64,000 nucleotides of DNA, taken from NCBI GenBank assembly GCA_963514005.1, contig OY740801.1, positions 23,560,001 through 23,624,000 of the forward strand. The letters are read 5' to 3'. Below, piece by piece: positions 914 through 63,751 of this stretch. The position numbers and the translations under genes were made by a program. Below the pieces are notes generated by a model. That model did not search any database, was not told the origin of the DNA, and saw only the letters and a list, made by a program, of their open reading frames with translations. The first letter of the stretch is position 1. Every line of letters begins with the position of its first letter. Source of the stretch: Raja brachyura. Its lineage: Eukaryota.

Positions 914-1003
914 GTAAGTATTCTGTGAGTGTACATTGACATGTTAATATCAACTCCCTTATTCTCTCACATTAACAGTGCCACGTATATTTAGTCAATG
1001 TTT
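914..1003. repeat. Left copy of 90-bp direct duplication flanking the Gypsy element
   Basis: GTAAGTATT...GTCAATGTTT at 914-1003 matches 5505-5594 with 1 mismatch seen. Confidence 0.93.
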
Positions 1004-1026
1004 GGTTGCATATAAAACCATCTACA
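1002..1026 (-). repeat. Truncated 3' LTR (first 25 bp only)
   Basis: TGTAGATGGTTTTATATGCAACCAA is identical to the start of the 5' LTR (5504-5480) and directly follows the PPT. Confidence 0.9.
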
Positions 1027-1037
1027 TCCTTCCCCTT
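1027..1037 (-). promoter_or_regulatory. Polypurine tract (PPT)
   Basis: AAGGGGAAGGA on the minus strand immediately before the TG of the 3' LTR. Confidence 0.85.
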
Positions 1038-1084
1038 AGAAAATCAAAACAGACCGTTGTCACTACAAACAGAATTAAACAGAA

Positions 1085-2952
1085 TTAAACAAAATCGCCA
1101 TAACGAACAGGTGGCTTGCTGATCCGGCCCGAGCGCGTACGGATGTCTCCCCCTTCCCCCGGTGGAGCAGAAGAAACAGGAGGACCGAGACAGCAGGGGA
1201 ACCAGGGAAGGGCGGTGGGGTTGGAGGAACGGGGAGGGAGAACCGCGACCGGCAACAGGTGACCCGCGCAGAGGGGAACCGGGCGCTCGATATGGGGATC
1301 GAGGCATGCAGGGAATGCTGGCTGGGACAGCAGCTGGCTGCTGGTATGAGAGTGGCGGGGCGTAGGGCCCCGGGGGCTGCGGCTTCGGCTCATTAACCAC
1401 AAGCAGGTGTTGTCGGCTTCTACGGTAGATGGTTCCCTCATAGTCGACCAGATACGAACGAGGTGAGTCGGCCACCCCAACCACGGTAGCCAGATGGGAG
1501 TGACCACCGGCGGTCTGCAACCGAACAACCTGTCCAGGCAACAGAGGATCGAGTGGTCTGCATGACCGATCGTGGGAACGCCGCTGGCTGTCATGTTTCT
1601 CTTGAATGCGCAGAGGCAGGCTCCAGCACCCAAGGTTTCAGCTGGCGCTGGGCAATCGGGATGGTAGATCTGGTTGTTCTGGACATCAGACGCTGAGCAG
1701 GGGACCCCATGGCCGGATCCCTGGAAACATTCCTGAGGTTCAGGAGATCCAAATACAAATCAGAGTTAGACAGTCTCGCCTGTTCCATCAGAAGCTTGGC
1801 GCTGCGGACGGCCCGTTCAGCAAGGCCGTTGCTCTGTGGGTACTCCGGGCTGCTGGTGAAATGCACAAAATTCCATTTGTTGGCAAAACTCTTGAACTCT
1901 CGGCTGGTAAACTGCCTGTCATTGTCAGTCTGCAGCCTCACAGGGGACCCAAACGTGGAGAAGTGTTCACCATCTCCGACGTGAGGGATGTCAGCAAATC
2001 CACTTCAAACCAGTTCGAGTACGAGTCGACCAGGACAAGGTAGTGGTTACCACGCCACTCGAAGATGTCGGCAGCCAGCGAGGACCAGGCCAAGGCAGGG
2101 GCGGGCTGTTGCAGCAGGGGCTGTCGCTGCTGGTGTGGAGCAAGACTGTTGCACGTGGAGCAGGCAGAAACACGGTCTCGAATATATTTGGCCATTCCAG
2201 GCCAGTAGAATTGGCACTGAGCGTGGGCGAGTGTTGCATCAACCCCGGGGTGTCCGCTGTGGGCTGCGCAGTAGTAAGAATCGAACAGGGAGGACGGGCC
2301 CACCACTTTATGTCCCTTAACGATAACGCCATTCTGGAGCACTAGTTCGTCACGGACCAGGAAGAAAGGCTGTGTTTCAGGCGGCGCAGCGGAGCGCTTT
2401 GTTGGCCACCCTGATTTAATCACAGAGGCAAGCCGCTGCAAAACTGGATCGGCAGCGGTGTGTCGGCCAAAAGCTGCAGCTGCTTGGTGGGAATAAAATT
2501 AACGCCCAGTACGAGTAAGTCCTCTGTTTCGTAGGAGTGGCGAGCACAGGAGGTCCGCGGGGCGCGCGATAAGGTGCCGCAATGTGCATCTCAGTGCCTT
2601 TCTTGTAGATGACGTCAAAATCAAAGCTCTGGAGCTGCAGCATCATACGCTGCAGCCTGGCAGGGGCAGCGTGAATCGGCTTGTTCAGGATTGTCACCAG
2701 TGGCTGGTGGTCGGTTTCGACCGTAAATCTGCTGCCAAACAGGAAGTCTCTGAACTTGGAGCAGGCAAACACCACCGCGAGCAGCTCCTTCTCGATCTGA
2801 GCGTACCGCTGCTCGGTGTCCGTCATGGTGCGGGAGGCATAGGAGACAGGATGTAACGATCCATCGACAGACTGAAGGCAGGCCGCGCCCAGACCGAACT
2901 TAGAAGCGTCACAGGTGACGGTGATGGGGCGACTCGCATCAAAGAATCGCAA
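1085..2952 (-). pseudogene. Gypsy pol RNase H and integrase, split by frameshifts
   Basis: CDASKFGLGA/YAQIEKELLA/TDHQPL (RNase H); H..H..C..C zinc finger; QTDN...SNGLAERAV integrase core; C-terminal RTRSGR..KPPVRY; spread over ORFs 2416-2952, 1938-2441, 1591-1941 and 1085-1633. Confidence 0.9.
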
Positions 2953-2986
2953 CGTCGGAGTGTTAATCAGTTTCGACTTGAGACAG

Positions 2987-5209
2987 TCAAACGCCTGCTG
3001 GTAGTGTGGGAGCCAGACCCAGGCGATATCCTTTTTTTGTCAGCTGCCGCAGGGGAGCACTCAGCTCACTGAGATTTGGTACAAACTTCCCAAGGTAGTT
3101 CACCATGCCCAAGAATCGTTGTAGACCTGGCACGTCGGTGGGGGCTGCCATCTCGAAGATGGCAGCTGCCTTCAAAAGGTCGGGTTTTAGTCCGTTGGAG
3201 GTGAAAACGTGTCCAACATACGTGACTTCTGAGACACGAAACCGGCACTTCTTTGGATTCAGCTTCAGGTTGGCCTTTCGCGCCCGATCCAGGACGCGGT
3301 GGAGGTTCAGGTCGTGCTCGGCAATGTCCTTCCCATAAACTAGGATATCATCCACGATGATGGCACATGGCAAGTCCGAGAATATCTGCTCCATCGTTCG
3401 CTGGAACACCTCGCTAGCGGAATTGATGCCGAATGGCATTCGCAGAAACTTGAATCTGCCGAATGGTGTGGCGAAGGTTGTCAGGTCAGGAGATGCTTTG
3501 TCCAATGGGATCTGCCAAAACGAGTTCTTAGCGTCTAGGACCAAAAAGATGGTGGCTTGCCTGACCTGAGCCGCCACGTCCTCAACAGACCGCATGGGGT
3601 AGTGTGGTCGCCTGATGGCACGGTTTAAGTCCTTAGGGTTAATACACACACGTATTTCGTTCTTGTCTTTCTTTATCGTGGCAACCATGGTGGAGACCCA
3701 ATCGGTGGGCTCGCTAACCGCTTCTAGCACCCCCTTTTCGACCATGTTGTTAAGCATCGCCTCGACCCTGTCTTTCATGGCGTGGGACACCCTGTGAGGT
3801 GCGCGGACCACAGGTTGTACACTGGGGTCAATGGAAATATGGTATGTCAGTGGTAACTTTCCCAGGTCATCGTTGAACAGGTCCTGGTATTCTGCAATCG
3901 GGTTAAACGACAGTTGCACCTTGTGGACCGTGCGGTCGAAGGACACCAGGCCAAGATCTTGGCACGCACGGTTTCCCAGCAGGGTAACACAGTCAGAGTT
4001 CAAAACATAGAAAATCAGGTTTCTCGTGGCCTTTTGCAGCACGCAAGTTAAAGTGGCCCTCCCCACAGGCCTGAGAATTTCTCCACCATAGGCATGCAGA
4101 GTAGCATTGTCAGCGACCAGGGCCTCATCATTCCTTATCTTGTTGAAAAGATTTATTGACAAAACGTTGACCTTTTCCCCAGTATCTAACTTCGCAAGGA
4201 AGGTTACATTATTGACAGTCACAGATACGGAGGGATCAAGACGTTGGCCAGGTGCCTGGAGGAGGGTAAACACATTCGAATCCTCGGGAGAATTAATTGG
4301 ATCTGCATCATAGGATTCAGCAATGTCGGGCTGTGGGTCGTAACAGCTATCAGATTGTTTCAGCATGTTTAGACTGGGTCTGGAAATCTGTACCTGTCTC
4401 CCACAGGAACGGAAGGAACGACAGGCGGCAGAGAAGTGATTCAGTTTTTTACAAAAATTACAGGCCTTGCCATAGGCAGGGCACGTCGACAGTCTGTGGT
4501 GCATGAAGTTACAGTTTGGGCACCTTTTTGGGGGCACTTCATCAGGACCAGGGTTGGCACGCGGCAGAAAAGCATTGTTTCCCCTCCAAGGCTGTGGTCT
4601 CCTAAACCCAGCCAGGTTGACAGATTTATCGCCCGAGTCCCGGTGATCATCTGCCAATACAACGACCTCAGACAATCTGCAGGCATGCATGGCTTTTTCC
4701 AACGTTAGATCCGGATCCCTAAGAAGCTCACATCGCAGCTTCTGGTCACGCATGCCAGTTACTAAAATGTCTCTAGTGAGCTGGTCTGTCATGTCACCGA
4801 AACGGCACCGCTGGGCGAGATAACGCAAATCGTCAATAAAACATTCAACAGGTTCATCCGGCAGCTGTCTCCTTGTAAAGAACCGTGCCCTCTCTAGAAT
4901 GCGGTTCGAGGGCAGGTCACAAATCTCCCTGAACTTACGTAGCAGGCAAGCGGGGTCACTGGCAGATTCTGCAGGAGTAATCACCACGCTGTTGTCGTCT
5001 AGGACCGCTGGAGCGTAGACAAAAGTTCTGGCTCTCTTCATGGCATCAGGTCCGACAAGGTTGAGTAGGAGGGAGGCTTTGAGGGAATCAGGATCAGTGC
5101 GGTGTGCGACGTTGACAAAGTGGGTGAAGTCAAATTCAAACGTGGCCCAGTGCTCAGAGATATCAGCATCAAAGACAAGCTGCGCGTGCTTTCTGCAGGA
5201 GGACGCCAT
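2987..5209 (-). CDS. Gypsy Gag-protease-reverse transcriptase polyprotein, truncated by a frameshift near 3030
   Basis: CCHC knuckle CNFCKKLNHFSAAC, aspartic protease LDTG, RT motifs LDAKNSFWQ, RMPFG and IVDD; likely start MASSC at 5209. Confidence 0.88.
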   Translation of the reverse strand: MASSCRKHAQLVFDADISEHWATFEFDFTHFVNVAHRTDPDSLKASLLLNLVGPDAMKRARTFVYAPAVLDDNSVVITPAESASDPACLLRKFREICDLPSNRILERARFFTRRQLPDEPVECFIDDLRYLAQRCRFGDMTDQLTRDILVTGMRDQKLRCELLRDPDLTLEKAMHACRLSEVVVLADDHRDSGDKSVNLAGFRRPQPWRGNNAFLPRANPGPDEVPPKRCPNCNFMHHRLSTCPAYGKACNFCKKLNHFSAACRSFRSCGRQVQISRPSLNMLKQSDSCYDPQPDIAESYDADPINSPEDSNVFTLLQAPGQRLDPSVSVTVNNVTFLAKLDTGEKVNVLSINLFNKIRNDEALVADNATLHAYGGEILRPVGRATLTCVLQKATRNLIFYVLNSDCVTLLGNRACQDLGLVSFDRTVHKVQLSFNPIAEYQDLFNDDLGKLPLTYHISIDPSVQPVVRAPHRVSHAMKDRVEAMLNNMVEKGVLEAVSEPTDWVSTMVATIKKDKNEIRVCINPKDLNRAIRRPHYPMRSVEDVAAQVRQATIFLVLDAKNSFWQIPLDKASPDLTTFATPFGRFKFLRMPFGINSASEVFQRTMEQIFSDLPCAIIVDDILVYGKDIAEHDLNLHRVLDRARKANLKLNPKKCRFRVSEVTYVGHVFTSNGLKPDLLKAAAIFEMAAPTDVPGLQRFLGMVNYLGKFVPNLSELSAPLRQLTKKGYRLGLAPTLPAGV

Positions 5210-5285
5210 GGTCAGAGAGATAAAGCACAAAAGGCACAAATCAAAAAAAAAGAAAGAAAACCCGATAGACAGGCGATGCAGGTGT

Positions 5286-5303
5286 CTTCCAACTCCGACA
5301 CCA
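5286..5303 (-). promoter_or_regulatory. Primer binding site (tRNA-Leu-like)
   Basis: TGGTGTCGGAGTTGGAAG directly after the LTR terminal CA; tRNA identity inferred from memory of Leu-type PBS sequences. Confidence 0.75.
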
Positions 5304-5504
5304 TGTAAATAAGCAATTCACAAACTCTAAGAGTGTTCAACACCTTTTAATGATAGCACAGAGTATTACATACATCCTCAAGTACTGGCTACATTCTTCT
5401 ACCGAACTGTACCCAGGAAGGGGAAGGCGTTATGATTGATGTTAAGTAGGCGGGGTTAATGGTGCTGAGGTAACTATTATTGGTTGCATATAAAACCATC
5501 TACA
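5304..5504 (-). repeat. Complete 5' LTR (201 bp)
   Basis: TGTA...TACA termini, adjacent to the PBS. Confidence 0.88.
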
Positions 5505-5594
5505 GTAAGTATTGTGTGAGTGTACATTGACATGTTAATATCAACTCCCTTATTCTCTCACATTAACAGTGCCACGTATATTTAGTCAATGTTT
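5505..5594. repeat. Right copy of the 90-bp direct duplication
   Basis: Matches 914-1003. Confidence 0.93.
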
Positions 5595-6266: not shown

Positions 6267-6314
6267 AACGCTTCTCGGCCTTTTGGCTAAGATCAAGTGT
6301 AGTATCTGTTCTTA
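6267..6314 (+). pseudogene. RNU2: U2 snRNA 5' fragment (nt 1-48) fused to the LINE 5' end
   Basis: AACGCTTCTCGGCCTTTTGGCTAAGATCAAGTGTAGTATCTGTTCTTA matches vertebrate U2 nt 1-48 except position 2, including the branch-site recognition GTAGTA; the rest of U2 is absent. Confidence 0.95.
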
Positions 6315-6476
6315 GGAGTGAAAGAGACTATCTGTTCTTTTTAGAACGGTTCTGGCGGTCCCTTGGGGACAAGGGCCGTGGATTGCGGAGCGAACTTGGA
6401 GACGAGGAGTTGTGGCTGCAGGTTTAGAGGTGGATCCATGCTGGTTGGGTAACCAACCTAACACCTTTTAGCCACT

Positions 6477-8141
6477 ATGTCAGCAGGAGCAGGAGGACAG
6501 GGTATTCGCAATACCCTGAGAATAAGCGTGAAGGACATCAGCGAGGGGACCCTCTTCTCACGAGACCTGTTCGTCAAGAAGGTCTTGCTAGGGGCCCTCA
6601 AATTTGAGGCTAAGGAGATCTACTGCCTCCAGGATTTCCCGGGTAACGGATATTTTGACGTTACCTTCAAGTATCCGACGGGATGGCAGAAGGTGATGGA
6701 GGATTTTCGGGAGAGGGGGAATGAAGCTCCGCTGTCGCTGCTCAAAGTGCAGCCGCTTTTCACCCTCCCCACCCAGAAGGAAAGGTTGATCACCGTGCAT
6801 ATGTTCAACCCACATGTGCCGGTAGTCGATGTCCTCACATTCCTTGCTCGCTACGTTGAGGGAACAGGGAACTGTGTGGACGTGAAGGACTTGCATGGAA
6901 TCTGGACGAGCAAGAGGCAAATCAAGGTCAAGCTGAGGGTGGACAAGGACGGAGAAATTGTCCACCCCCCCTCGGTTTTCGCCATCGGAGGGAACCGAGG
7001 CTACCTCAGCTACGTAGGGCAACCCAGGCTGTGCAGGAAATGCAACAAGCCTGGGCATGTGATGGCCCAATGCACTGCAGTTGTCTGCAAAAACTGCAAG
7101 ATGGAGGGCCACGAGACAAAGGACTGTCAGGCCAGTAAGAGCTGCAACCTGTGCGGGGAGGCAGGCCACCTTTACAGGGCTTGCCCTAAAAGAGCCTGCA
7201 CTTATGCACAGGCGACAAGAGGCGCTGCTGCCAGCACCCCCAAGGTGGGCGAAGCGCCCCCCACCACTACCAAGACCCCAGCAGAGAAAGGAAACGCCGA
7301 TGAGGACAGCCCAACCACCTTGAAGCCCCAAGTGCCAGAAGGAGACGCCCAGCATCTCGCCCAGGAGGGAGAATCGATGGAGGAGGAGGAACAAAAGGAG
7401 AAATGGACAACAGTGTCGTATAAGAAGCCGAGGGTTCAGCCCAAGGAGCCGAGGCCGCAAAGGACTGGTAAGTCTAAAAGCAAGCAAATAAAAAGATGTC
7501 TTTCTATTACAGAAGGCAGCAATCTCTCCTCTTCGTCGGAGGATGAGGCGACCGGGAAGTCCCAGCGAGGGAGACAGAGGAGGAAAACGGGGGAAGAGAA
7601 GAGAGAGGCCACGACGATCACGACCCGGCCCCAGGAGACCGAGAACAGAGAAGCGGCGGAAGGGCCCCAACCCCAGGACACCAGGAGCAGTGCAGCGGTC
7701 GAGGGGCCCCAGGCCCAGGACATCGGGAGCAGTGCAACGGTCGAGGGGCTCCAGCCCCTGGCGACAGGGATCATCACAGCGGCCAATGGGCCCCAGCTCC
7801 GGGCAACCGGGAGCAGCGCAACGGCCGATGGGCCCCAGCTCCGGGCAACCGGGAGCATTGCAGCGGCCAATGGGCCCCAGCTCCGGGTGACCGGGAGCAG
7901 CACAAAGGCCGTTGGGCCCCAGCTCCGGGCGACCGGGAGCAGTGAACCAGCCACCGTGACCCAGCTACAGGAGACGGAGGAAGCCGTGTGCCCGAAAGGG
8001 GGTGGAACGAGAAGGCCCCCCTCAACGACACCACTGGTTGCGCCACCAGAAACTCACCTCATCGCTGGATTCCTGAGCCCAGGAAAGCTGAGGCAATTCA
8101 CCGAAACGGTGGGAATGAGGGGACACGAAAACGGTCAGTGA
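6477..8141 (+). CDS. Tx1 ORF1, Gag-like nucleic-acid binding protein (ZCCHC3-like N-terminal part, 3 CCHC knuckles)
   Basis: 554-aa open frame; CRKCNKPGHVMAQC, CKNCKMEGHETKDC, CNLCGEAGHLYRAC; low-complexity C-terminus. Confidence 0.92.
   Translation: MSAGAGGQGIRNTLRISVKDISEGTLFSRDLFVKKVLLGALKFEAKEIYCLQDFPGNGYFDVTFKYPTGWQKVMEDFRERGNEAPLSLLKVQPLFTLPTQKERLITVHMFNPHVPVVDVLTFLARYVEGTGNCVDVKDLHGIWTSKRQIKVKLRVDKDGEIVHPPSVFAIGGNRGYLSYVGQPRLCRKCNKPGHVMAQCTAVVCKNCKMEGHETKDCQASKSCNLCGEAGHLYRACPKRACTYAQATRGAAASTPKVGEAPPTTTKTPAEKGNADEDSPTTLKPQVPEGDAQHLAQEGESMEEEEQKEKWTTVSYKKPRVQPKEPRPQRTGKSKSKQIKRCLSITEGSNLSSSSEDEATGKSQRGRQRRKTGEEKREATTITTRPQETENREAAEGPQPQDTRSSAAVEGPQAQDIGSSATVEGLQPLATGIITAANGPQLRATGSSATADGPQLRATGSIAAANGPQLRVTGSSTKAVGPQLRATGSSEPATVTQLQETEEAVCPKGGGTRRPPSTTPLVAPPETHLIAGFLSPGKLRQFTETVGMRGHENGQ
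7662..7942 (+). repeat. 42-bp in-frame tandem repeat (~7 units) in ORF1
   Basis: Unit GGGCCCCAGCTCCGGGCAACCGGGAGCAGCGCAACGGCCGAT encoding GPQLRATGSSATAD-like 14-mers. Confidence 0.9.
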
Positions 8142-8152
8142 CTCTAAAGACA

Positions 8153-11100
8153 ATGGAGCTCAAACTGGCATCTTTAAACGTGCGCAGTATAAAGAGCACT
8201 GCGCGATGTGTGAACGCCTTACAGTACCTGGCCAAGGTCAAGGCAGATGTGACTTTTCTTCAGGAGTGCGGGCTGCCACACCTCCGCTGCTATCGGAGGT
8301 GGTTGCGATGGTGGCCCCACGGACTGTCGGTGTGGTCGGGGGGCAATGACTGTCGTGCTTCCGGCCTGGGGATTTTGCTGCGGGGAGGGAACTTCGCCAT
8401 CAATGAGGTTAGGGCGGTGGTTGGGGGGCGTCTCCTTGTGGTGGATGTTATGTACCGTGGCTCTCCGCTCCGGCTGATTAATGTGTATGCCTCACCCATG
8501 CAGAGCGAGCGGCTGGCCGTTCTCCAGCAGCTCCCAGTGCTGCTGGCCACGTCCCGGCAGCTCGTTCTGGCCGGTGACTTCAACTGCATCATTGATGCGG
8601 CTGGACGATCCGGCAGTGCCGACAGCAGACTGGACAGCACGTCCAAGTTCCTGAGGGATATGGTAAAAGATGCAAAGCTGCGCGATGCCTTCAGCGACCC
8701 TGCAGGCGGGTCCCAGCCACGGTTCACCTGGTCGAGATCGGACGGTTTAGCCCGATCTCGGATAGACTTTGTCTTCACGACGAAGGCCGTCACGGTGAGA
8801 CACACTGACCTCACGCCGGTGTTCTTCTCCGACCACTGCCTCCTTCAGGCTTCCTGTCACCTACAGGAGGACCGGAAGGCAGGCAGAGGGACGTGGAAGT
8901 TAAACATGAAGCTGTTGACCCCAGAGAACATCGAGGAGCTAAAGAGGGACTACGCATGTTGGAGAACGGTGAAGCCCCTCTTTGACTCCCCCACACTCTG
9001 GTGGGAAGCAACCAAGGAGAACATTAAGAGGTTCTTCATAAGTAAAGGGGTTCAGAGAGCAAGACAGAGTCAGAGGGAATTGTGCCAACTCCAGACAGAT
9101 TTGCAACAATCTTCTGCAATCCTTCTGCAGTCGAGAGGGGTGGATGTGAAGGAGGAACTTAGAGACGTGAAGGACCGGCAAGCTCGGCTCTTTACCTCTG
9201 AATCCTCCAAGATCATCTTCCGATCCAGGGTCCGCCATGTGGAGCAGGATGAGACGTGCTCACGTTTCTTCTTCCATAAGGTTCACAGGGGGAGCTCTGT
9301 GATGAACAGCCTTAGGGAGGAGGACGGCTCGGTAGCATCCTCACACACAGACATGCTGAGGATCTGCAAATCCTTTTACACAGATTTGTATGACCAAAAG
9401 GCCATAGACAGCACCTCCTCCCAGAACTTCCTGTCCTCGATCACGGAGGTCTTGGAGGACAGCAAGCGGGAGAGTCTGGACCAACCACTGACCCTAGAGG
9501 AGCTGACTGGCTCCATCCGTTCCTTTGACTCGGGTAAAACTCCCGGAAGCGATGGCTTACCGGCCGAGTTGTATTCGGCTCTGTGGGACTGGATGGGCCC
9601 GGACCTGCTAGAAGTGTACAACGACATGCTTCTAGCTGGTAGCATGTCAGACTCCATGAGGAAGGGCAACATCACCCTAATCTACAAGCAGAAGGGGGAG
9701 ATGAAGGACATAAAGAATTGGAGACCCATAACGCTCTTGAATGTAGACTACAAGATCCTGTCTAAGGCCATCGCCAACCGGGTCAAGTCTGCTCTGGGAC
9801 AGGTGATCCACCCGGACCAAACTTGTGCTGTACCTGGCAAGAAAATCTCAGACAGCCTAGCGCTGCTGAGAGATACCATCGCCTACGTGCAGGACAGACG
9901 GGTGGATGCCTGCCTAGTCAGCTTGGACCAGGAGAAGGCCTTTGACAGGATTTCGCACACGTACATGAGGGACGTGCTCTCCAAAATGGGTTTTGGGGAG
10001 GGAATCAGGAATTGGATCAATCTGCTCTACACCGACATCCGTAGTGCAGTCCACATCAATGGGTGGGAATCAGACAGTTTCCCTGTAAGGTCTGGAGTCA
10101 GGCAGGGTTGCCCTCTCTCTCCTGTCTTGTTTGTCTGCTGTATTGAACCTTTTGCCGAATCCATCAGGAAGGATGCGAGCATTAGAGGAGTGACACTGCC
10201 CGGCAGTGGGGGCATTCAAGTAAAGACCTCCCTGTACATGGACGATGTCGCTGTCTTCTGCTCGGATCCAGGGTCGGTCCGCAGATTGATTAGTATCTGC
10301 GACCAGTTTGAGTCGGCCACGGGAGCCAGGGTGAACCGCAGGAAGAGCGAGGCCATGCTCTTTGGCAACTGGCCCGACAGATCTTCCGTCCCCTTCACCA
10401 TCAAGCCTGACTTCTTGAAGGTGCTGGGGATCTGGTTCGGGGGGGCTGAGGCGTGTAACAAGAATTGGCTGGAGCGGATAGCCAGGGTGGGGAAGAAGCT
10501 GGAGCTGTGGAGGCAACGCTCCCTCTCCATAACAGGAAAGAATTTGGTCATCAGGTGTGAGGTGCTCTCGGGCCTGCTGTACTTGGCACAGGTGTGGCCT
10601 GTCCCCCCTTCCTACGCCACAGGGATCACCCGGGCCGTCTTCCAGTTCATCTGGGGGTCGAGGATGGACCGGGTGCGACGGGCCACAATGTACAAGTCGG
10701 CAGACAACGGGGGTAAAAGCGTGCCCAACGTCGCCCTCATCCTGATGGCCACCTTCGTGTGTGGCTGCATCAGGCGGAGTGTAGAGCCAAGGCACGTGGG
10801 CACCAAGTGTCACTACCTGCTGAGGTTCTACCTGTCCCCGGTGTTGCGAAGGATGGGCCTGGCGCAGATGCCACGCAATGTGCCAGTCAGCTGGTCACTG
10901 CCGCCCCATCTGTCGTCTGTGGAAAGGTTCTTCCGGACCAACACCTTTGACCACATGTCCATTGGGCAGTGGTCAGCACAGAATGTCCTGCAGGCACTGC
11001 AGGGAAAGGACTCGATGGACCCGGTGGCGTGGTTCCCTGAGCAGACTGCCCAGCTTGTCTGGCAAAATGCCTCATCGCCAGAACTCACCAACAAGCACCA

Positions 11101-11566
11101 AGACCTGGCTTGGCTGGCGGTGAGGGGAGCCCTCCCAGTCAGATCCTTCCTGCACCATCGGAACCTCACTACCAGCGCACGCTGCCCTCGGGACGGCTGC
11201 TATGGAGTGGAGACGGTTGCCCACCTCTTTGCAGAGTGTGGATTTGCCCAAAGAGTCTGGAGAAAAATGCAAGGGTCCCTGGTACGCTTTATTCCAAACA
11301 GCTCTGTCACAGAGGACTCTGTGATTTACGGACTGTTCCCAGGGACACATTCAGAGACTGACATCAAGTGCTGCTGGAAGGTTATCAACTCGGTGAAAGA
11401 CGCTCTCTGGTCTGCCCGAGCTTTGTTCACCACCCAGCAGAGCGAGATGTCCGTCGGGGAATGTTGCCGACTGGCCCACTGCAGACTGCAGGAGTACGTA
11501 CTAAGGGACGCACTGAAGCTCGGTGCAGCCAACGCCAAGGCTCGGTGGGGGAGGGCCACAGTCTAA
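8153..11566 (+). CDS. Tx1 ORF2: apurinic-type endonuclease, reverse transcriptase and C-terminal zinc finger (1137 aa)
   Basis: SLNVR, FLQE, GDFN, RIDF, SDH (APE); PGSDG, WRPITLLN, QGCPLSP, YMDD (RT); CPRDGC..ETVAHLFAEC; uninterrupted frame, ATG at 8153. Confidence 0.95.
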   Translation: MELKLASLNVRSIKSTARCVNALQYLAKVKADVTFLQECGLPHLRCYRRWLRWWPHGLSVWSGGNDCRASGLGILLRGGNFAINEVRAVVGGRLLVVDVMYRGSPLRLINVYASPMQSERLAVLQQLPVLLATSRQLVLAGDFNCIIDAAGRSGSADSRLDSTSKFLRDMVKDAKLRDAFSDPAGGSQPRFTWSRSDGLARSRIDFVFTTKAVTVRHTDLTPVFFSDHCLLQASCHLQEDRKAGRGTWKLNMKLLTPENIEELKRDYACWRTVKPLFDSPTLWWEATKENIKRFFISKGVQRARQSQRELCQLQTDLQQSSAILLQSRGVDVKEELRDVKDRQARLFTSESSKIIFRSRVRHVEQDETCSRFFFHKVHRGSSVMNSLREEDGSVASSHTDMLRICKSFYTDLYDQKAIDSTSSQNFLSSITEVLEDSKRESLDQPLTLEELTGSIRSFDSGKTPGSDGLPAELYSALWDWMGPDLLEVYNDMLLAGSMSDSMRKGNITLIYKQKGEMKDIKNWRPITLLNVDYKILSKAIANRVKSALGQVIHPDQTCAVPGKKISDSLALLRDTIAYVQDRRVDACLVSLDQEKAFDRISHTYMRDVLSKMGFGEGIRNWINLLYTDIRSAVHINGWESDSFPVRSGVRQGCPLSPVLFVCCIEPFAESIRKDASIRGVTLPGSGGIQVKTSLYMDDVAVFCSDPGSVRRLISICDQFESATGARVNRRKSEAMLFGNWPDRSSVPFTIKPDFLKVLGIWFGGAEACNKNWLERIARVGKKLELWRQRSLSITGKNLVIRCEVLSGLLYLAQVWPVPPSYATGITRAVFQFIWGSRMDRVRRATMYKSADNGGKSVPNVALILMATFVCGCIRRSVEPRHVGTKCHYLLRFYLSPVLRRMGLAQMPRNVPVSWSLPPHLSSVERFFRTNTFDHMSIGQWSAQNVLQALQGKDSMDPVAWFPEQTAQLVWQNASSPELTNKHQDLAWLAVRGALPVRSFLHHRNLTTSARCPRDGCYGVETVAHLFAECGFAQRVWRKMQGSLVRFIPNSSVTEDSVIYGLFPGTHSETDIKCCWKVINSVKDALWSARALFTTQQSEMSVGECCRLAHCRLQEYVLRDALKLGAANAKARWGRATV

Positions 11567-12939
11567 GGTCCTTCCGCTGCTGGACATGGGGGGTACTGTA
11601 TGGTGGAGACGCCCCTCAAAATAAGGGAAGGTATCCCATGCCGGGGGGCCACATGAGTGGCACGGGTGGGGGATTAATTAGTAAAATTTGAAAAATGTAT
11701 ATAGACTGCATGGAAGAATTTGTATAGCCTCCGAAAATGTCGGATGGATTTTTCGCACGGTTGATGTATTGTAAATATTTATTACTTGAATAAAGTCTAT
11801 TTTGAAATATTAAAAAAAAATGTGAATTTCACTCAGACAGTGCTCCCCCTGCTTGCCCTGTCCCCCGCCTACATAACGGGCTGGTGAAGGAAGCGATGTA
11901 TGAGGAAGAGGAAAATGTAGGGGGTGTATCTTATAAATCTATAGAGTTTGGAATGAGGTCAAGAAATAAGATTGAAGTCTCCTAGCTTGAGGAGGAACTA
12001 GGGCCAGGTCCTGAGTTCTGGCTGCATGTACACCTCCAAATCATATCACAATGATCTGGGAATGAAGCGCCTTAATAGTTGTCTGATGTAATTTCCACAA
12101 ATAATCACTAGAAGCCAGAGACACTGATTAGCATGTTATTGTAGTGTAATGGAATCTGTAACCCAATTGTTTGCTTGCTCCATTCCTGTTCCACAAATCC
12201 AATGTGATTAAAGAATCTAAAAGGTTTCTAATTAATCTACTGAGAGTCATTTTCAATGTAAGTCCCATGGGAAGATTGTAAACACATTTAGAGTTATTGA
12301 TTTAACCTGAAGCACAAGTAGTATTGTGGAAGTGTAAAGGAGACAAAGGAAAGCAGGCAGCCAATAGAACATCATCTAAATGCCAGTGCAAATTGTCTTT
12401 GATGGAAGGAAATGTACTGAGGAATGGCAACCAACAAGCAAACAGATATTGTGACTACAGGTGACGCTGGGTTGACAATGACTATGGTGGCGGTGGCGGC
12501 TGTTTCAGGTATGACCCAGTGTCTCAGTCTTTCTCCAGCCCTGCAAGATGAGGATACAGCTAACAGTTTGCCTGCCCCTTCTGGCTTGACGAGTTTCAGG
12601 TTGGCCAATCCAATATCAGCTAATTGGACACAGCTGTTTCTTATTTGGCAGTGGTCTCAGCTCCATGGTGCTGAGGTTTGGTTTCTCCTTGCCTGTCTGC
12701 CAGTGATGGGGGTCAGAGCAACATCCAAGGGAATGAGCACTGTCACAAAGTGCATCATTCAGAGTTACAAACACACTGAATGGAGGAACAGTGCTCTAAG
12801 TAAGAGGTTTAAATTGAAGGTAGACACAAAATACTGGAGTAGCTCCGTGGGACAGGAAGTATCCCTGGAGAGAAGGAATGGGTGATGCTTCAATTACAAA
12901 TATTCCAAAAAATAAACCCTGAATGATACATATCCTAAT

Positions 12940-22843: not shown

Positions 22844-24526
22844 ATGCCGCCAGTTCAGCATATACCCCAATGGGTATTCACCCTCTCAGTCAAAGAGAAA
22901 CAAGAGGGTCAAGCTGAACTGATGAGACTACTAGCAAAAGGTGTCATTGAAAGAACAAAACATGAACCTTTGGAATTTGTTTCTAATATTTTCACTAAAA
23001 CTAAAAAAGATGGTGGATGTCACATCATCATTGACTTAACTTCTTTAAACAAAACTGTTAAGTATATACATTTCAAGATAGAAACTTTTGAAACAGCCAG
23101 ACAATTGATTTCTAGAGGGTACTTTCTGTCAAGCATTGATTTAAAAGATGCCTACTACTCAGTACCCATACACAAGGAACATCGTAAATACCTAACGTTT
23201 ATCTGGATGAAACAGCTATGGCAATTTAAAGCCTTACCAAATGGGCTAACCTCAGCTCCAAGGTTGTTCACAAAAATCTTAAAACCTTTGGCATTATTGA
23301 GGAAACAAAAGCATATAGTCATGGCATACTTAGACGACATTTTAATAGTAGGGAAAACCTTGGAGACAGCCATTTTGGCAGAAGCAGCCACCAAACGTTT
23401 GTTTGAAACTTTGGGGTTTGTCATACATCCAGATAAATCCAATTTGACACCGTCCACAACCATGGACTATCTTGGATTTACGATTGACACTATTCGCATG
23501 ATTGTAACTCTGCCAAAGGGGAAAGCATCAGAGTTGGCACAATCATGCAACGAACTAATGGTTAATCATCAGCCAACCATACGGCAGGTAGCTAGTGTCA
23601 TTGGGAAAATGGTAGCAGCCTTTCCAGCTGTACAATTTGGGCCTTTGCACTATCAAAATTTACAAAGAGCAAAAGTGCACACACTAAAGAAAAACTCAGG
23701 TCACTTTGACCGAGCTATGAATTTAACTCCTGAATCCATTCCAGAATTACAATGGTGGACAAGGAACGTTAGGCTTAGTTCCAGTCCCATAATAATCACC
23801 AACCCAGTATTAACCATTCAAACGGATGCCAGTGCTTTGGGCTGGTATGCAACTAACATGCAATCCAGCACAGGGGGCAGATGGACTAATTTTAAATCAT
23901 CTTGCCTACAGACACGGGGTATTAACTACTTGGAAATGTTGGATGCGTTTTATGGTTTAAAAGCTTATTCATCTAATACGCATCACGCACATGTCCGGTT
24001 GCAATTAGATAATACGACGGTGGTGGCTTATATCAACCACATGGGTGGTGTAAAGTCGATATCATGTGACAATTTGGTCAACCTAATCTGGCAATGGTGT
24101 GTCGAAAGACATATTTGGTTATCAGCAACTTACCTACCAGGTAAGCAAAATACAGTGGCAGACACCAGGTCACGCAAATTTAACGATAACATCGAATGGA
24201 TGTTAAATCCCAAAGTATTTGCTGAAATTACAAAGCAATATGGCACACCAGATATCGATCTATTTGCATCTCGGCTGAATCACCAGGTACCAACGTATGT
24301 TGCTTGGGAACCAGACCCGGAGGCAGCAGCAGTTGATGCATTCACGCTGCATTGGGGTAAAATGTTCTTCTATGCTTTTCCTCCCTTCTGCCTCATCAGT
24401 TGGGTATTACGCAAGATTCAATTGGATTCCGCTTCAGGAATCTTGATAATACCCGACAGGCGTACAGCCATGGTTCCCAGTGGCCCTCGACATGGCTGTC
24501 GAAACACCATTGGAATTCCCCAGTAG
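22844..24526 (+). pseudogene. DIRS RT-RNase H-methyltransferase-like ORF
   Basis: IDLKDAY, LPNGL, YLDD (RT); TDAS, INYLE, DNTT, ADTRSR (RNase H); DLFASRLN and YAFPPF (MT-like); upstream stops and a terminal frameshift. Confidence 0.9.
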
Positions 24527-24573
24527 TCCAGTATTATTAATCCACCCAGTGTCAGGCATTAGTCACCCGTGCC

Positions 24574-25553
24574 ATGACAGAGTCAATCTCCTGGCTTGCA
24601 AATCTAAAAAGACCTCTACTGGGCCTGGGACTGTCTGAGGACGCCATCAACATGTTGACCGCATCCCACCGGGAGTCCACCAGGAGACAATACCTGACCA
24701 ACATAAGGAAGTGGGAACGGTATTGCTCCAAAACAGGAACTACCTACACAACAGCAACAGCTACCAGTGTTGTGGAGTTCCTCGTTGGATTACAACGGGA
24801 TGGACTCAGCTACAGCGCCATCAATACAGCCAGGAGTGCGTTTACAGCAGGACAACAGGCTTTGGGGTCCCATCCACTGGTGGTCAAACTCATGAGGGGT
24901 ATTTTTAACACTAATTCCCTCAGACTAAGGTACACTCAGATCTGGGATGTCAGCATTGTGCTGACGTACCTTAGGGGATGGCCACCACCCAGGTCACTCA
25001 CGCTGGAACAACTTACCCTGAAATCAGTCATGCTCATGGCACTAGTGTCAGCTCAAAGGGTACAGTTTCTCCACCTTCTGAGGCTGAACAGCATGACAGA
25101 GTCATTGGACTGTATCACATTCCATATTCAGGGTCTGGTCAAACAAACTTGACCAGGAACCACGCCTCCAGTCATTGAGTTCCGGGCATATTCATCTGAC
25201 CCACGGCTGTGTGCCATATACCCTCGCCATATACATAGACACAACATACAACTTAAGAGGGAGAGAAAAAGCCTTATGGATAAGCCACAAGAAGCCCGAT
25301 GGTCAGGTGACGAGCCAAACCATTTCAAGGTGGCTCAAGCAGGTGCTTAAGTCCACGGGAGTCAACACTAATGTTTACAAATCTCACTCCACCATCCACG
25401 TCGGCGGCTAGGCGAATGGACGTGCCTTTGGACCACATTCTGGCCAGAGCAGGATGGTCCTCGGAAAGAACTTTCCAAAGGTTTTATAATAAGCCGCTGG
25501 CAGAACCTGCTACGTTTGCAGACAGAATTTTAGAGTCTGCAGATAATATTTAA
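24574..25553 (+). pseudogene. DIRS tyrosine recombinase, broken
   Basis: STRRQY, SYSAINTARSA, ALVSAQRV, TISRWLK, YKSHST, AGWSSERTFQRFY over three frames. Confidence 0.88.
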
Positions 25554-58771: not shown

Positions 58772-58825
58772 GGGGTGGAAGATTACAACCTTCACGTGGT
58801 CCGCCCTGTTTCGACGAATGCAATT
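58772..58825 (+). ncRNA. Predicted HDV/CPEB3-like self-cleaving ribozyme (minimal P4)
   Basis: P1 GGGGUGG/CCGCCCU, P2 GAUUACA/UGCAAUU, P3 ACC/GGU, L3 UUCACGU, J4/2 CGAA (catalytic C at 58815); folded by eye. Confidence 0.8.
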
Positions 58826-58911
58826 AACCCGGCATGCACAATCAAATAAGATCAAATAGAACAAGTTGTCCTACAACTTTAGGCTGTGCACGCCATACGC
58901 AAGAAGAGAAG
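58772..58911 (+). mobile_element. ~140-bp SINE-like element with (GAA)n tail, copy 1
   Basis: TSD AAGATAGTT at 58763-58771 and 58912-58920; highly similar to the reverse complement of 61641-61791. Confidence 0.9.
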
Positions 58912-61640
58912 AAGATAGTTCATTGTGTTATCCTATATTACAGAAGTACAATTATTGGAGAGGTGGATCATTGTGTATTATAACAGTTCATTGATATATT
59001 GAAGAGTTCTAAACTGATTTCACTACATTGGGAAACAACAACTCTTACCTCAAACAATATGACATATCACCAGAGTTGAGATATTGAGCCTTATTCCAAT
59101 TATCTAGTAAACTATATCCTTATTACAAATTATTGATATAGCGATAACCAATTAGATAGTTCAAACTTCTTTCAACAAACAACATTCCAAAAATAGTGCA
59201 CGGAATAGTCCTATCTCTGATGTAGTTTACTCTAATATTTCTTCCGTTGAAGAGCTCTGAAACACATATCACCTATCTGCTACAAAGGATCTTAAGTTCT
59301 GAGACTGCTGAGTGTTTCCAGCAATTTCTGTTTTTATTTCAAATTTCCAACATCTGTATTTTAACTTTGTCCCCAGCACCCATCTGCGCACACAATATAT
59401 TATGCTGAGGCAGCATTGGATCGCCATTATCCAATATGAAGAGTATTAATATATGAAGAAATTCCATTTTTGATGCACAGTTCTCTGCACAATTGCCGTA
59501 CTGGTGCTAAGTATCCCACAGTCAAGCACAGATATGTCCATTGGCATGAGTGCTGTGAGTCACTGATACAGAGCAGGCTTTTGATACTGTGAAGCACCAT
59601 TCTCTCTGACTGAAAGAGTCCGGGGATCAGTTCAGGCAAGCCCCTCTAAATCACACGTAATGATTCTCTGTAATGGTGTGGTGGAACACTGTGAACTTGA
59701 TCCGAGCCACTTTAAGGTAGCTACAAAGCTCTCTTTTCATCACACCCTGACGTCAGCCCATCCTTCAAACCACCATATCTACCATTCCATGTCAAATTGT
59801 CTCCCCCTCCATCATTATCACACCTGACCTGACTGTTCACACTACTGACCAGTGAACACTTGTTCCCAGTATCTCCAACCACCAAACCTCCCTTCCGCTA
59901 ACTGCTACTTGCATTCCCAGATTACCAATTTTATACAGCTGACTACAAAATCATCCCCTTATTGCCAGCTTCCTTTCCATCAACCTTGACTACTAAATTA
60001 ATTACCAAGGTCTAATCCTTGCCCCTTGTTTACTAAAACCTACCAGGCCTGACTTACCCCCTCACTAACATGGAATATACCTTCTACAAAACTATCAATC
60101 CAACGTGCAATAAAATCCTTTCTGGTTTCCATACCATTTATCCATGCTGAATCTACCTGCATCATAGGCAGAGAGAACCAGGCCTGTCACTGGCACACAA
60201 TATCTGTGTCCTCGTGAAAAACTATATTTCCCAGCAACAGGCTAGGAAATAAAACCTTCAAGGGCATGCCTTGAACCATCTGACTGATGTACCAATCAAG
60301 TTCCAGTCCACTGAGTCCTAATGGGACACATTATATGCTTCATTGCTATGATATTGGAATCAAGCATTAATTCATTGGTGTTCAATATTACAGTTATTGA
60401 TATGCCCCATCTCATTTTGTAACATTTGACAAGTGACTCCCTATTATTATGCTTCAGTCCGAATATTGCTGCTTGGTGTATAGAATAATGATTCTCTGTT
60501 ATGGCATGGAAGAGTATAATGCATCATTAAAATCCTCAATAAATGCAACTTGGCTGAGCAACTGGAGCCTTCAGAGGGAACTCCAGAGGTTAATAAAACT
60601 GCCAATGAAATGTTTCCCCCATTTGAGTACAATGTCTTGAGACCTTGCCTGAGTTCCAGAATCTCCAGGCTGTTGGAACAACCATTCAGCATCTACCCGT
60701 TAATACCACTGGGAATGTTGTATTCTTCAAGGACTTCATCTCTCTTTCTACCAAACTGCATTGGGTATAGGCCCAATCTTAGTCTGGAACAAGCTCCTCA
60801 TTCCACGAATCTATCAAATGAATGTTCACTACAGAATCCTGAGCTCGTCTATCACTACTTAAGTACTAAGACCGAAACAGTTCCATACACCAAAGGAAAT
60901 CACAGTACAATATCAACAATCCCTTGTGAAAAGGCCATTTGCGTTCTGAATTACTCGCAGTATCTACACGTTTACTTTGTTCATGAAGAATAATCTGTGC
61001 ATTCTGTGCATTAGCATTGACTATTGGTTTCTTCCCAACAAAAAAACCCCAATTACCTAGATATTTAATTGTGTAACCCATTTTCACTCACATGCCCTTT
61101 AACTCCAACTGATTCTCCTACCATCTACTCTAGAGGTAATTTAACCAGACAGCACATGTTTGGGGTATGGTAGGAAATTGGAACATTGGGGAGAATCCCA
61201 TAGTGAAATACCTATACTCCATATAGGCAACACCAGAGCTGAAGGTTGAACCTGGGTCGCTGGGTAAGAGACAGATTTAATCTCTTGTATTGATAGCCAT
61301 TCAGCATATTGACTTCATACGAGTAACAACAGGCTTTAATCCTACCGTCCATTCTTTATCTGTAACTTTCCAAATAATGGTTGCTCACGTGATATTTGGA
61401 GCAAGTGGGTAACTGGGGAAAGGGTAGTTCCACTCAAAGACAAGGGAGGGAGTTTATGTGTAGAGCCAGAGGAAGTGGACAAGGTTTATATTGAGCACTT
61501 TGCATTTGGTAGTCGCCAGGGAGAAGGACAAGGATGATGGTGAGATTTGGGAGCGGTGTGTTGATATTTTACGGCAAGTTGATATTAAGAAGGAGGAGGT
61601 TCATTAGTTCATATTTGAATATTTGGATGGAGAAGTAGCT

Positions 61641-61791
61641 TGTTGTTCTTCTTCTTCTTCTTGCGTATGGCGTGCACCGCCTAAAGTTGTCGGACAACTT
61701 GTTCTATTTGATCTTATTTGATTGTGCATGCCGGGTTGTTTGCATTTGTCGAAACAGGGCGGACCATGTGAAGGTTGCAATCTCCCACCCC
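61641..61791 (-). mobile_element. SINE-like element with (GAA)n tail, copy 2
   Basis: TSD GAGAAGTAG(CT) at 61630-61640 and 61792-61802; same sequence family as 58772-58911. Confidence 0.9.
61738..61791 (-). ncRNA. Predicted HDV/CPEB3-like ribozyme, copy 2
   Basis: GGGGUGG GA GAUUGCA ACC UUCACAU GGU CCGCCCU GU UUCGA CAAA UGCAAAC; two CpG-type G>A changes relative to copy 1. Confidence 0.72.
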
Positions 61792-61860
61792 GAGAAGTAG
61801 CTGTTGAAGTTTAATCCAGACATGTGTGAGCTGTTGTCTATTGGAGGGTTAAATACAAGA

Positions 61861-61884
61861 GGGTTAGGGTTAGGGTTAGGGTTA
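61861..61884 (+). repeat. Interstitial telomeric repeat (GGGTTA)4
   Basis: GGGTTAGGGTTAGGGTTAGGGTTA. Confidence 0.95.
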
Positions 61885-62270
61885 CCAGCAGAGCGAGATG
61901 TCCGTCGGGGAATGTTGCCGACTGGCCCACTGCAGACTGCAGGAGTACGTACTGAGGGACGCACTGAAGCTCGGTGCAGCCAACGCCAAGGCTCGGTGGG
62001 GGAGGGCCACAGTCTAAGGTCCTTCCGCTGCTGGACATGGGGGGCACTGTATGGTGGAGACGCCCCTCAAAACAAGGGAAGGTATCCCATGCCGGGGGGC
62101 CACATGAGTGGCACGGGTGGGGGATCGATTCGTGAAATTTGAAAAATATATATAGACTGTATGGAGACATTTGTATAGCCTCCGAAAATGTTGGATGGAT
62201 TTTTTTCGCACGGTTGATGTATTGTATATATTTATTACTCGAATAAAGTCTATTTTGAAATTAAAAAAAA
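61885..62270 (+). mobile_element. 5'-truncated copy of the Tx1/Keno-like element
   Basis: Closely matches 11434-11820; poly(A); 16-bp TSD GGTTAAATACAAGAGG at 61847-61862 and 62271-62286. Confidence 0.95.
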
Positions 62271-63751
62271 GGTTAAATACAAGAGGAAAGAATCCCATAA
62301 ATACCAGGACCCTTGGGGGCACTGATGTACAGAGAGATTTTGGGAAGCAAGTCCATGGCTCCCTAGTAGTTGAAACACTAATTTGTGACTTTTTTCCCCA
62401 GGGTGGAAATGTCAAATACTAGAGGGCACAGCTTTAAGATGATAGGTAGATAGTTTAAAGAAGCTTTGCGAGTCAAGTTTTTTTTTACACAGGGAATGGT
62501 GGATTCCTGGTGGTAGAACTATGTGATAGCAACATTTATACAGGCCTTTATGCAGACACATGAATTGGCAAAGAATGGTAGAAAATGGATCTTGTGCAGG
62601 CAGCTGGGATTATTTTCATTGGGCATCATGATCAGTGCAGACATGATGGCCAGAAGAACATCTTCCTCTGCTGCACTGCTCTACGTTCTCAATTTTCCCT
62701 GCTATTTTTCAGATCTCTGTTGTTGTATTCCTTTTGGAATTCTGCCCTCCGGCTTACATTAACTTCTCTTTTTACTTCCTGCAGAAAAGTTTATAATTAT
62801 TTTGTTAAATTTCCTCTCCTATGCATTTGGCTGTTGCACTGGCCTATCAATACTGTCATGAACTCTCCTCCTCACAGTTAATTACGCTTCCTACATTTCA
62901 AACTTTGCTTTCTTATCCACTACACCAGACCAATCCTCATTATCCATTGGCCTTTATAAGATGGAGTTATCATGGTGTACTGTTTGTGCTGCTCCTCAGT
63001 AAAATACCTTTTTTTGGAATGAGTTATGCATTGTCTGCAATAAGTTTTGCATTGTCTGCAAATTTGGAAATTGTCCTCCACACTCTCAAGTCAAAGCGTG
63101 AATATATATTACGAAAAGCAGTGGACCAAGTAGCGGCCCCTAGGGAACACTGCCCTCCATTCCAAGAAACAATCTTTCATTGTTACTCTCCACAAAATGA
63201 AAAATGATTTTGTAAATTCAAATGTTGTTGTTTTCAAAGTAGATTTTTTCAAGGGTACATCTCAAATGTACTGACATCAATGTGTTCGAGGTGCCATATT
63301 TTCCATGGTGCCAGGTGTTCAAGTAAGTATACAACATTCCTCCTTAGTCCACCTTGTTAATTGAAAGCAAGAAGTTATTTGGCTGAATTAAAACCAGAAA
63401 ATGCTGAAATATACTGACATCAGATAGTATCCGTGGAAAATGAATTAATTTAACTTTCCCACCACTGTGGAAGACTCACCAACCTGTAGTTCCCTAGGTT
63501 ATACTTATTGCCCTTCTTAAATCAAGGCAGATTATTGACTTTATCTTCAATCTTCTGCTACCTCAACCATGGCTAATGAAGTTACAAAATCCCTGCTAGG
63601 GCCCCAGCAAGTTTCCTTGTGTTTCTCACAACAAGCCATGGGAGAGTGGGGGCTGTCCCGAGGAATGCACACCTTCGGCCGCATTCAATTTGGTGCTTGG
63701 GTTCAGATTGTCCAGTCACCTATGGCTTGTGTGGGAAAATGAACCCCATGA

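Follow-up and report, generated by a model that had tools for sequence, protein, structure and literature searches.

Short interstitial telomeric repeats of primates, rodents and horse (short ITS and TERC-ITS) have been ascribed to telomerase acting at germ-line breaks, according to the parts of two papers available to us (PMC2246262, PMC7215372). They are short, perfect TTAGGG runs that are missing from the orthologous empty site and stand in register with the broken end, and some loci are preceded by the complement of the bases adjacent to the telomerase RNA template; they arise at ordinary double-strand breaks, and TERC or random sequence may accompany the repeat in the insert (same sources, likewise in part). 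TTAGGG inserts at induced breaks have been described as well (PMC5110952, available sections). Telomerase at internal breaks is known mainly through such interstitial repeats at ordinary breaks. Extra nucleotides between the target and the truncated 5' end of LINEs, in zebrafish ZfL2-2 among others, depend on the host and have been linked to the 3' overhang that second-strand cleavage exposes (PMC4245944, available sections). Athena, an endonuclease-deficient Penelope-like element, carries telomeric repeats on its truncated 5' end, sits at chromosome ends and starts a new telomere there (PMC3846280, available sections), and Tx1 families with U1 or U2 snRNA heads, as well as Keno, are on record (PMC4494074, available sections). 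Telomerase-made interstitial repeats, LINE 5' extra bases and chromosome-end Penelope elements that lack an endonuclease and are capped by telomeres are thus already known; the 5' joining of non-LTR and Penelope insertions is still an open question. Endonuclease-independent L1 insertion at telomeres, reportedly described in 2007 by Morrish, is said to let the telomeric repeat prime reverse transcription, with the repeat adjoining the 3' end of the element and no target-site duplication.

Here we analyse a 5'-truncated Tx1 copy whose target-site duplication (TSD) encloses a telomeric repeat at the 5' junction, in a 64-kb window (the whole stretch of DNA analysed) on C21 of a 2.7-Gb genome, where the insert is internal and TSD-flanked. 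The run shares the hallmarks of ITS, being 25 nt long at 100% with AGG, 3 nt, in register, and with an empty site that lacks the repeat (by length). Unlike ITS, the repeat marks a break that is an intermediate of retrotransposon integration; it is enclosed by the TSD and joined to truncated cDNA, and at the level of the class described below it can grow from either the target or the cDNA end. As with the ZfL2-2 extra nucleotides, bases have been added between the target and the truncated 5' end, but here they are telomeric and, at class level, come with a telomerase RNA signature; in the available text of PMC4245944 the word TTAGGG is missing and 'telomer' is confined to the reference list. 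Unlike Athena, the insertions considered here are internal, TSD-flanked, made by endonuclease-bearing elements and rejoined to the chromosome, and the focal ORF2 family encodes an endonuclease, which sets the site on C21 apart from the endonuclease-deficient, telomere-capped type. The L1 case likewise has a LINE next to TTAGGG, but here the repeat occupies the 5' junction, the poly(A) is next to ordinary DNA and the TSD measures 16 bp, a geometry that rules out telomere-primed, endonuclease-independent insertion. The focal family is like the snRNA-headed Tx1 families (PMC4494074, available sections) in its CCHC ORF1, APE-RT ORF2, poly(A) and, in full-length copies, U2-derived head; unlike Keno, the copies examined lie outside U2 genes and have no common flanking target.

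In our literature search, telomeric repeats enclosed by a TSD at the 5' junction of an endonuclease-bearing retrotransposon were nowhere described; subscription papers lay largely, and supplements wholly, outside it, and single cases may exist there. A term look-up in the available parts of PMC4003774, PMC2912911 and PMC4245944 gave no passage on such repeats. The focal feature is real and most likely records telomerase activity in the course of integration. As a single site it is a repair scar with no evident function, and its interest lies less in itself than in a recurrent class of junctions with telomeric repeats in both orientations.

Anatomy of the focal insertion and its Tx1 family

Table 1. 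Features of the window that bear on the focal insertion.
Feature	Position	Strand	Basis or remark
Full-length Tx1 member: U2 snRNA-derived head, ORF1, ORF2	6267..11820	+	Pfam and sequence comparison
GAA-tailed short retro-repeat with its own 11-bp TSD, separate from the event	61630..61802	-	contig comparison; missing in organism A too
Telomere-like 7-mer AGGGTTA, already in the target	61845..61851	+	inferred first-strand nick 61846|61847 cuts through the motif
Left TSD, 16 bp, terminal AGG in register with TTAGGG	61847..61862	+	sequence comparison
Inserted telomeric repeat, 22 nt, perfect, G-rich strand 5'->3' from the TSD end	61863..61884	+	missing in other copies and (by length) in the relative's empty site
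5'-truncated Tx1 copy: end of ORF2, 3' UTR, A8 tail	61885..62270	+	95.4% identity to window 11434-11819 of the full-length copy; 99.2% to the closest copies
Right TSD	62271..62286	+	sequence comparison

The insert is bounded by two copies of GGTTAAATACAAGAGG, a duplication of exactly 16 bp beyond which the bases differ on either side, and its Tx1 part measures 386 bp including the tail. Together with the last AGG of the TSD, the inserted repeat forms a 25-nt perfect hexamer run (TRF: period 6, 4.2 copies, 100%), and nowhere else in the window is there a TTAGGGTTAGGG site; allowing one mismatch, there were 2 overlapping matches where shuffled sequence averaged 0.28. No exact microhomology was found at the joint of the telomeric repeat with the truncated Tx1 piece. 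Because the closest copies elsewhere in the genome are 99.2% identical, the insertion can be taken as young. The motif AGGGTTA straddles the start of the left TSD, within 24 nt of the junction; it is present in 0.5% of background 24-nt windows (n=27,356). An earlier note on this DNA had described the same order of TSD, telomeric repeat, 386-bp Tx1 3' end with poly(A) and TSD, with the terminal AGG in the TTAGGG register and the G-rich strand running 5'->3' from the target end, and had stated that the repeat is missing at the matching position of the full-length element. Each of these observations was borne out; the AGGGTTA motif had escaped the note.

The full-length member carries ORF1 (6477-8141) with CCHC knuckles (Pfam zf-CCHC) and ORF2 (8153-11566) with endonuclease, RT and zf-RVT domains (Pfam Exo_endo_phos, RVT_1, zf-RVT), and copies of the family show poly(A) ends, 5' truncation and TSDs alike. 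We take the element to belong to the Tx1 clade, going by architecture rather than by a tree. Full-length copies (window 6267-6315; L091, L096, L099) begin, inside the TSD, with the 5' part of U2 snRNA. Because in L096 the U2 piece is enclosed by the TSD, it reads as the head of the element and not as its target; with 3' flanks that are not U2 either, U2 targeting of the Keno type is ruled out. Further snRNA-like pieces stand ahead of the U2 head in 3 of 29 Tx1 copies (L095, L101, L099). Two of these have U1-like fragments of ~45-50 nt with different joints, the one in L095 with a weak Rfam match under the gathering score (E=0.0014) and the one in L101 U1-like by eye, and the 5' piece of the third, L099, is presumably U5-like, again by eye. 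The family captures cellular RNA at its 5' junction, as these pieces indicate. Local duplications occur at two other Tx1 junctions (L018, L100). Within ORF1 of the window's full-length member (7624-7944) there is a 42-bp tandem repeat, whose copy number differs among members (L101, L102).

The telomeric repeat is specific to the focal copy. The corresponding position of the element was read 43 times (some loci twice), and 42 readings had TTCACCACC or TTTACCACC upstream, leaving the repeat at the focal copy only; the focal junction 20-mer has 1 occurrence in the genome (G000). The repeat as an internal feature of a subfamily, which the earlier note had named as a possible refutation, is thereby ruled out. 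Four 61-base pattern windows on Tx1, covering a small part of the 5.5-kb element, returned the focal site, one further locus (L308), nothing, and, in the C-rich orientation, again nothing. In L308 (C32:29636888-29636992, minus strand), an older Tx1 copy whose TSD measures 11 bp, ~6 TTAGGG repeats lie in the 3' UTR between a short duplication; as the run is internal to the element, the locus was left out of the 5'-junction count.

The empty site gave a concordant result. In a relative (organism A, run X1), a 658-nt contig spans 61500-61629 and 62271-62421 with exactly 55 letters between them, which is the length of 61792-61846 and leaves no space for the repeats or for either insert; going by these lengths rather than by read letters, the contig represents an empty site without the telomeric repeat. 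In another run (X17), a 210-nt contig matches exactly from 62271 onwards and its preceding 78 letters do not align to the Tx1 tail, which fits an empty site; a joint of 61830 with 62270 carrying 15 unlike letters was also seen in this run and may come from a paralogous repeat. The comparison with read runs, in which 61854-61891 is masked, covers the flanks of the telomeric junction. A repeat already present in the target, the second possible refutation named in the earlier note, is ruled out, the right TSD continuing with AAAG and the empty site having, by length, no room for it.

Telomeric junctions of a Penelope-like element

We sampled 96 telomeric-run sites from pattern listings, mostly on C1-C8. 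Tx1 adjoined the run at none of them beyond the focal site, and seven lay next to a second repeat (L065, L066, L176, L180, L200, L211, L217; a TSD was not confirmed at L200). This second repeat is probably an endonuclease-bearing Penelope-like element, because a longer copy ends in a frame with YIDD and a domain resembling GIY-YIG, and because inverted arms are seen in some copies. The frame of L268 contains YIDD and a GIY-YIG match (Pfam, E=2e-4, scoring 22.0 bits where the cut-off is 22.6), no RT family match being found in this partial frame, and copies with an inverted terminal arm on the 5' side plus a TSD were seen at L236/L244, L240 and L241. The tail of the element looks hammerhead-like to us; Rfam found no hammerhead in it.

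An 18-nt anchor at the 3' end of this element occurs 94,830 times in the genome. G-rich runs lie at most 20 nt upstream of the anchor at 12 distinct loci (17 rows) and C-rich runs do so at 5, one locus being common to both, which brings the Penelope-junction telomeric loci to 16. A reversed-hexamer control with the same anchor, comprising one hexamer only, gave 0 matches; it was run separately because the pattern tool's built-in reversed control reverses the anchor too and is empty by construction. The chance of adjacency is 3.7e-4 per run, so that fewer than one chance case is expected given a few hundred isolated runs (a rough estimate from listings), and a telomeric 13-mer had 0 occurrences in 329 kb of unselected loci. 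The scan for further cases that the earlier note had proposed was therefore empty for Tx1 5' junctions (0 of 28 other copies) and productive at Penelope-like 5' junctions; the recurrent telomeric junctions belong to a different retroelement class than the focal Tx1.

A TSD of 7-15 bp surrounds both run and element at 9 of the 12 G-rich loci, 7 identified by script and 2 by eye. The automatic TSD finder picked spurious matches at L224, L230, L234, L240, L241, L243, L275 and L200, of which L224 and L234 were read by eye. Because their junction points differ, the G-rich cases are separate events. In none of the 8 script-confirmed G-rich cases (the 7 above and L281) does the empty site contain a telomeric 7-mer. 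By hand count of 10 direct cases, including the focal site and L281, the target end shares at least 1 nt in register with the run in 8 and at least 2 nt in 6 (binomial 4e-4 and 1e-5, respectively); L238 with its 35-nt AT filler, the hairpin loci L231 and L236 and the mixed locus L230 were excluded from this count. Cases that are C-rich on the sense strand of the element comprise L240-L243, L065 and L211, with TSDs of 12-15 bp in L065, L242 and L211.

Several of these loci have further structure. In the inverted-arm copies L236/L244, L240, L241 and L231 the spacer is a telomeric repeat, and at L240 run and element overlap by 5 nt where the run meets the second arm. At L230 and L242, C-rich and G-rich runs stand back to back within a single junction flanked by a TSD, which would fit extension of both ends.

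Telomerase RNA signature and origin of the focal repeat

The genome has a single telomerase RNA gene (L062, G000:C14:14467878-14468354, minus strand; RF00024, 157.9 bits), whose template region CTAACCCTAA is followed by TGCACGG, and DNA copied from the edge of this template would read CCGTGCA-TTAGGG. Such bases were found at Penelope junctions: at L239, TGCA is the end of the TSD directly before the run; at L281 the order is TSD, GTGCA, run; at L230, CCGTGCA precedes the run; and at L243, CCCTAATGCA stands at the cDNA-side junction. Genome-wide, the 17-mer made of GTGCA and TTAGGGTTAGGG occurs 193 times against 1 for a control with a shuffled 5-mer, many of the 193 matches being clustered and hence not independent. 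In 5 of the 25 loci examined (25 of 30) the match to telomerase RNA is 7-11 nt long, and two of these five look related. Among loci L275-L299, the 17-mer also turned up inside telomeric arrays at L277 and L296 and at what look like subtelomeric joints at L294 and L299. Adjacent bases followed by several repeats require template translocation, which is a property of telomerase. The same telomerase RNA-adjacent signature has been used for mouse interstitial repeats (PMC2246262, available sections). At the focal site, where the template pairs with the terminal AGG of the TSD, no telomerase RNA-adjacent bases are present, nor are they expected when AGG pairs inside the template.

It is likely that telomerase extended the free 3' overhang of the target during Tx1 integration, adding the 22 nt. 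In such a course of events, the Tx1 endonuclease would nick the bottom strand at 61846|61847 and its RT would copy 386 nt starting at the poly(A), and a second, top-strand nick after 61862 would leave a 16-nt single-stranded 3' overhang ending in AGG. The AGG would pair with the telomerase RNA template and be extended by ~3.7 repeats, with the telomere-like bases at the far end of the overhang possibly aiding the binding of telomerase, as telomere-like bases upstream in a 3' end may do. The extended end would then be joined to the truncated cDNA by host end joining, with no exact microhomology between them, and fill-in would leave the repeat permanently within the TSD. In the class as a whole, telomerase would take either free 3' end, giving G-rich repeats when the target end is extended and repeats that are C-rich on the sense strand of the element when the cDNA end is.

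The focal site by itself cannot decide the mechanism, and its assignment to telomerase goes by analogy with the other loci. Against telomerase at this site it counts that the register would equally follow from any microhomology joining. On the same side stand the want of a second Tx1 case (0 of 28 other copies, and none in the four pattern windows), the membership of the recurrent cases in another retroelement class and the capture of cellular RNA by this Tx1 family. The proposal of the earlier note that telomerase extended the upstream 3'-OH stands as the most likely reading, with genome-level support from the 16 Penelope loci, the telomerase RNA-adjacent bases and the two orientations; its own arguments of strand and register do not discriminate, because a switch of the RT to G-rich telomeric RNA followed by microhomology joining gives the same strand and the same AGG register.

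Such a switch is the first alternative to be weighed, and we regard it as unlikely. Here the Tx1 RT would have left its own RNA for a second template, either G-rich telomeric RNA (TERRA) or single-stranded telomeric DNA, and copied 22-25 nt of it, after which the cDNA end annealed to the AGG overhang. Besides predicting the observed strand and register, a jump would suit a family that bears snRNA fragments at 5' junctions and whose own head is U2-derived, and TERRA has been suggested as the source of some interstitial repeats (PMC7215372, available sections). However, the focal run is short, perfect and without a variant repeat. A jump moreover accounts neither for the telomerase RNA-adjacent bases at Penelope junctions nor for the cases that are C-rich on the sense strand, since in these the G-strand has to grow from the end of the cDNA, and copying a G-rich RNA cannot produce such a strand; a second mechanism beside telomerase would be needed, whereas one enzyme extending any free 3' end accounts for both orientations.

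The earlier note had considered the site a clean footprint of telomere machinery whichever of these two readings held, and this was too strong, because AGGGTTA at the start of the TSD admits local templated synthesis as a third rival. Without any telomere machinery, the GAGG end would re-anneal to GAGG 15 nt upstream and copy GTTA, and a Pol theta-like polymerase or the RT would repeat the copying 3 more times from AGGGTTA. The low background frequency of the motif, the local duplications at the two other Tx1 junctions and the frequency of extra nucleotides at fish LINE 5' junctions (PMC4245944, available sections) speak for such copying, as does the end of the run in TTA, the same as in the local motif. 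Among 44 clean interstitial runs, TTA ends were counted in 6 and TAG ends in 12, and since TTA ends are common among such runs, this end says little either way. Local templating is nonetheless improbable: the nick implied by the TSD splits the motif as AG|GGTTA, so that the remaining template would presumably give AGGTTA and not AGGGTTA; three re-primings of 1 nt would be needed, each halting at the same base though the template continues with AAATAC; and a local template is missing from all 8 G-rich Penelope cases confirmed by script. An artefact of assembly or polishing, or a later independent break exactly at the junction, is most doubtful of all, for although the read comparison masks the junction and L308 shows a telomeric run inside Tx1 away from a 5' junction, a run of 25 nt poses little difficulty to assembly when its flanks are unique, neither TSD copy is damaged, at least 9 other loci have this anatomy and a later break at exactly this base is improbable.

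Taking the telomerase reading beyond the focal site, the balance of the evidence leans towards telomerase as a regular but rare actor (~1-2 in 10,000 insertions) at integration intermediates in the germ line of this vertebrate, which extends the free target or cDNA 3' end in two unrelated endonuclease-bearing classes, Tx1 and Penelope, with the end being rejoined and no new telomere formed. Since the TSD fixes both nicks, the geometry of the break is known, and from the repeat it follows that another polymerase had time to act on a 3' overhang while it was free. The two orientations and the species-specific telomerase RNA signature make strand exposure during integration testable by sequence alone, and retrotransposition becomes an added source of short interstitial telomeric repeats. 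If true, orientation and telomerase RNA-adjacent bases would form a fossil record of the strand ends exposed in 5' joining, including those of the unresolved Penelope cycle and its inverted arms.

Other repeats of the window and genome

The GAA-tailed short retro-repeat of Table 1 has a second copy in the window at 58772-58915; its copies have a fixed 5' end and TSDs, and its exact anchor occurs 6,401 times in the genome. A telomeric run in the G-rich orientation was found at none of these 6,401 anchors, which is uninformative as ~0.8 would be expected. Elsewhere in the window, 90-bp direct repeats (914-1003 and 5505-5594) bound a segment (914-5594) that we take to be an LTR-retrotransposon-like element with a gag-pol-like ORF on the minus strand, and 22844-25152 is presumably a DIRS-like element with RT-like and recombinase-like ORFs.

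Telomeric runs were also met in two other settings. A dispersed repeat family has a short, partly degenerate telomeric run at a fixed internal position in many copies (L052, L079, L183, L184, L188, L199, L204, L207, L208). At L196, L217 and L222, telomeric runs lie between direct duplications of 8-21 bp with no retroelement piece, and these resemble TSD-flanked inserts of the repeat only.
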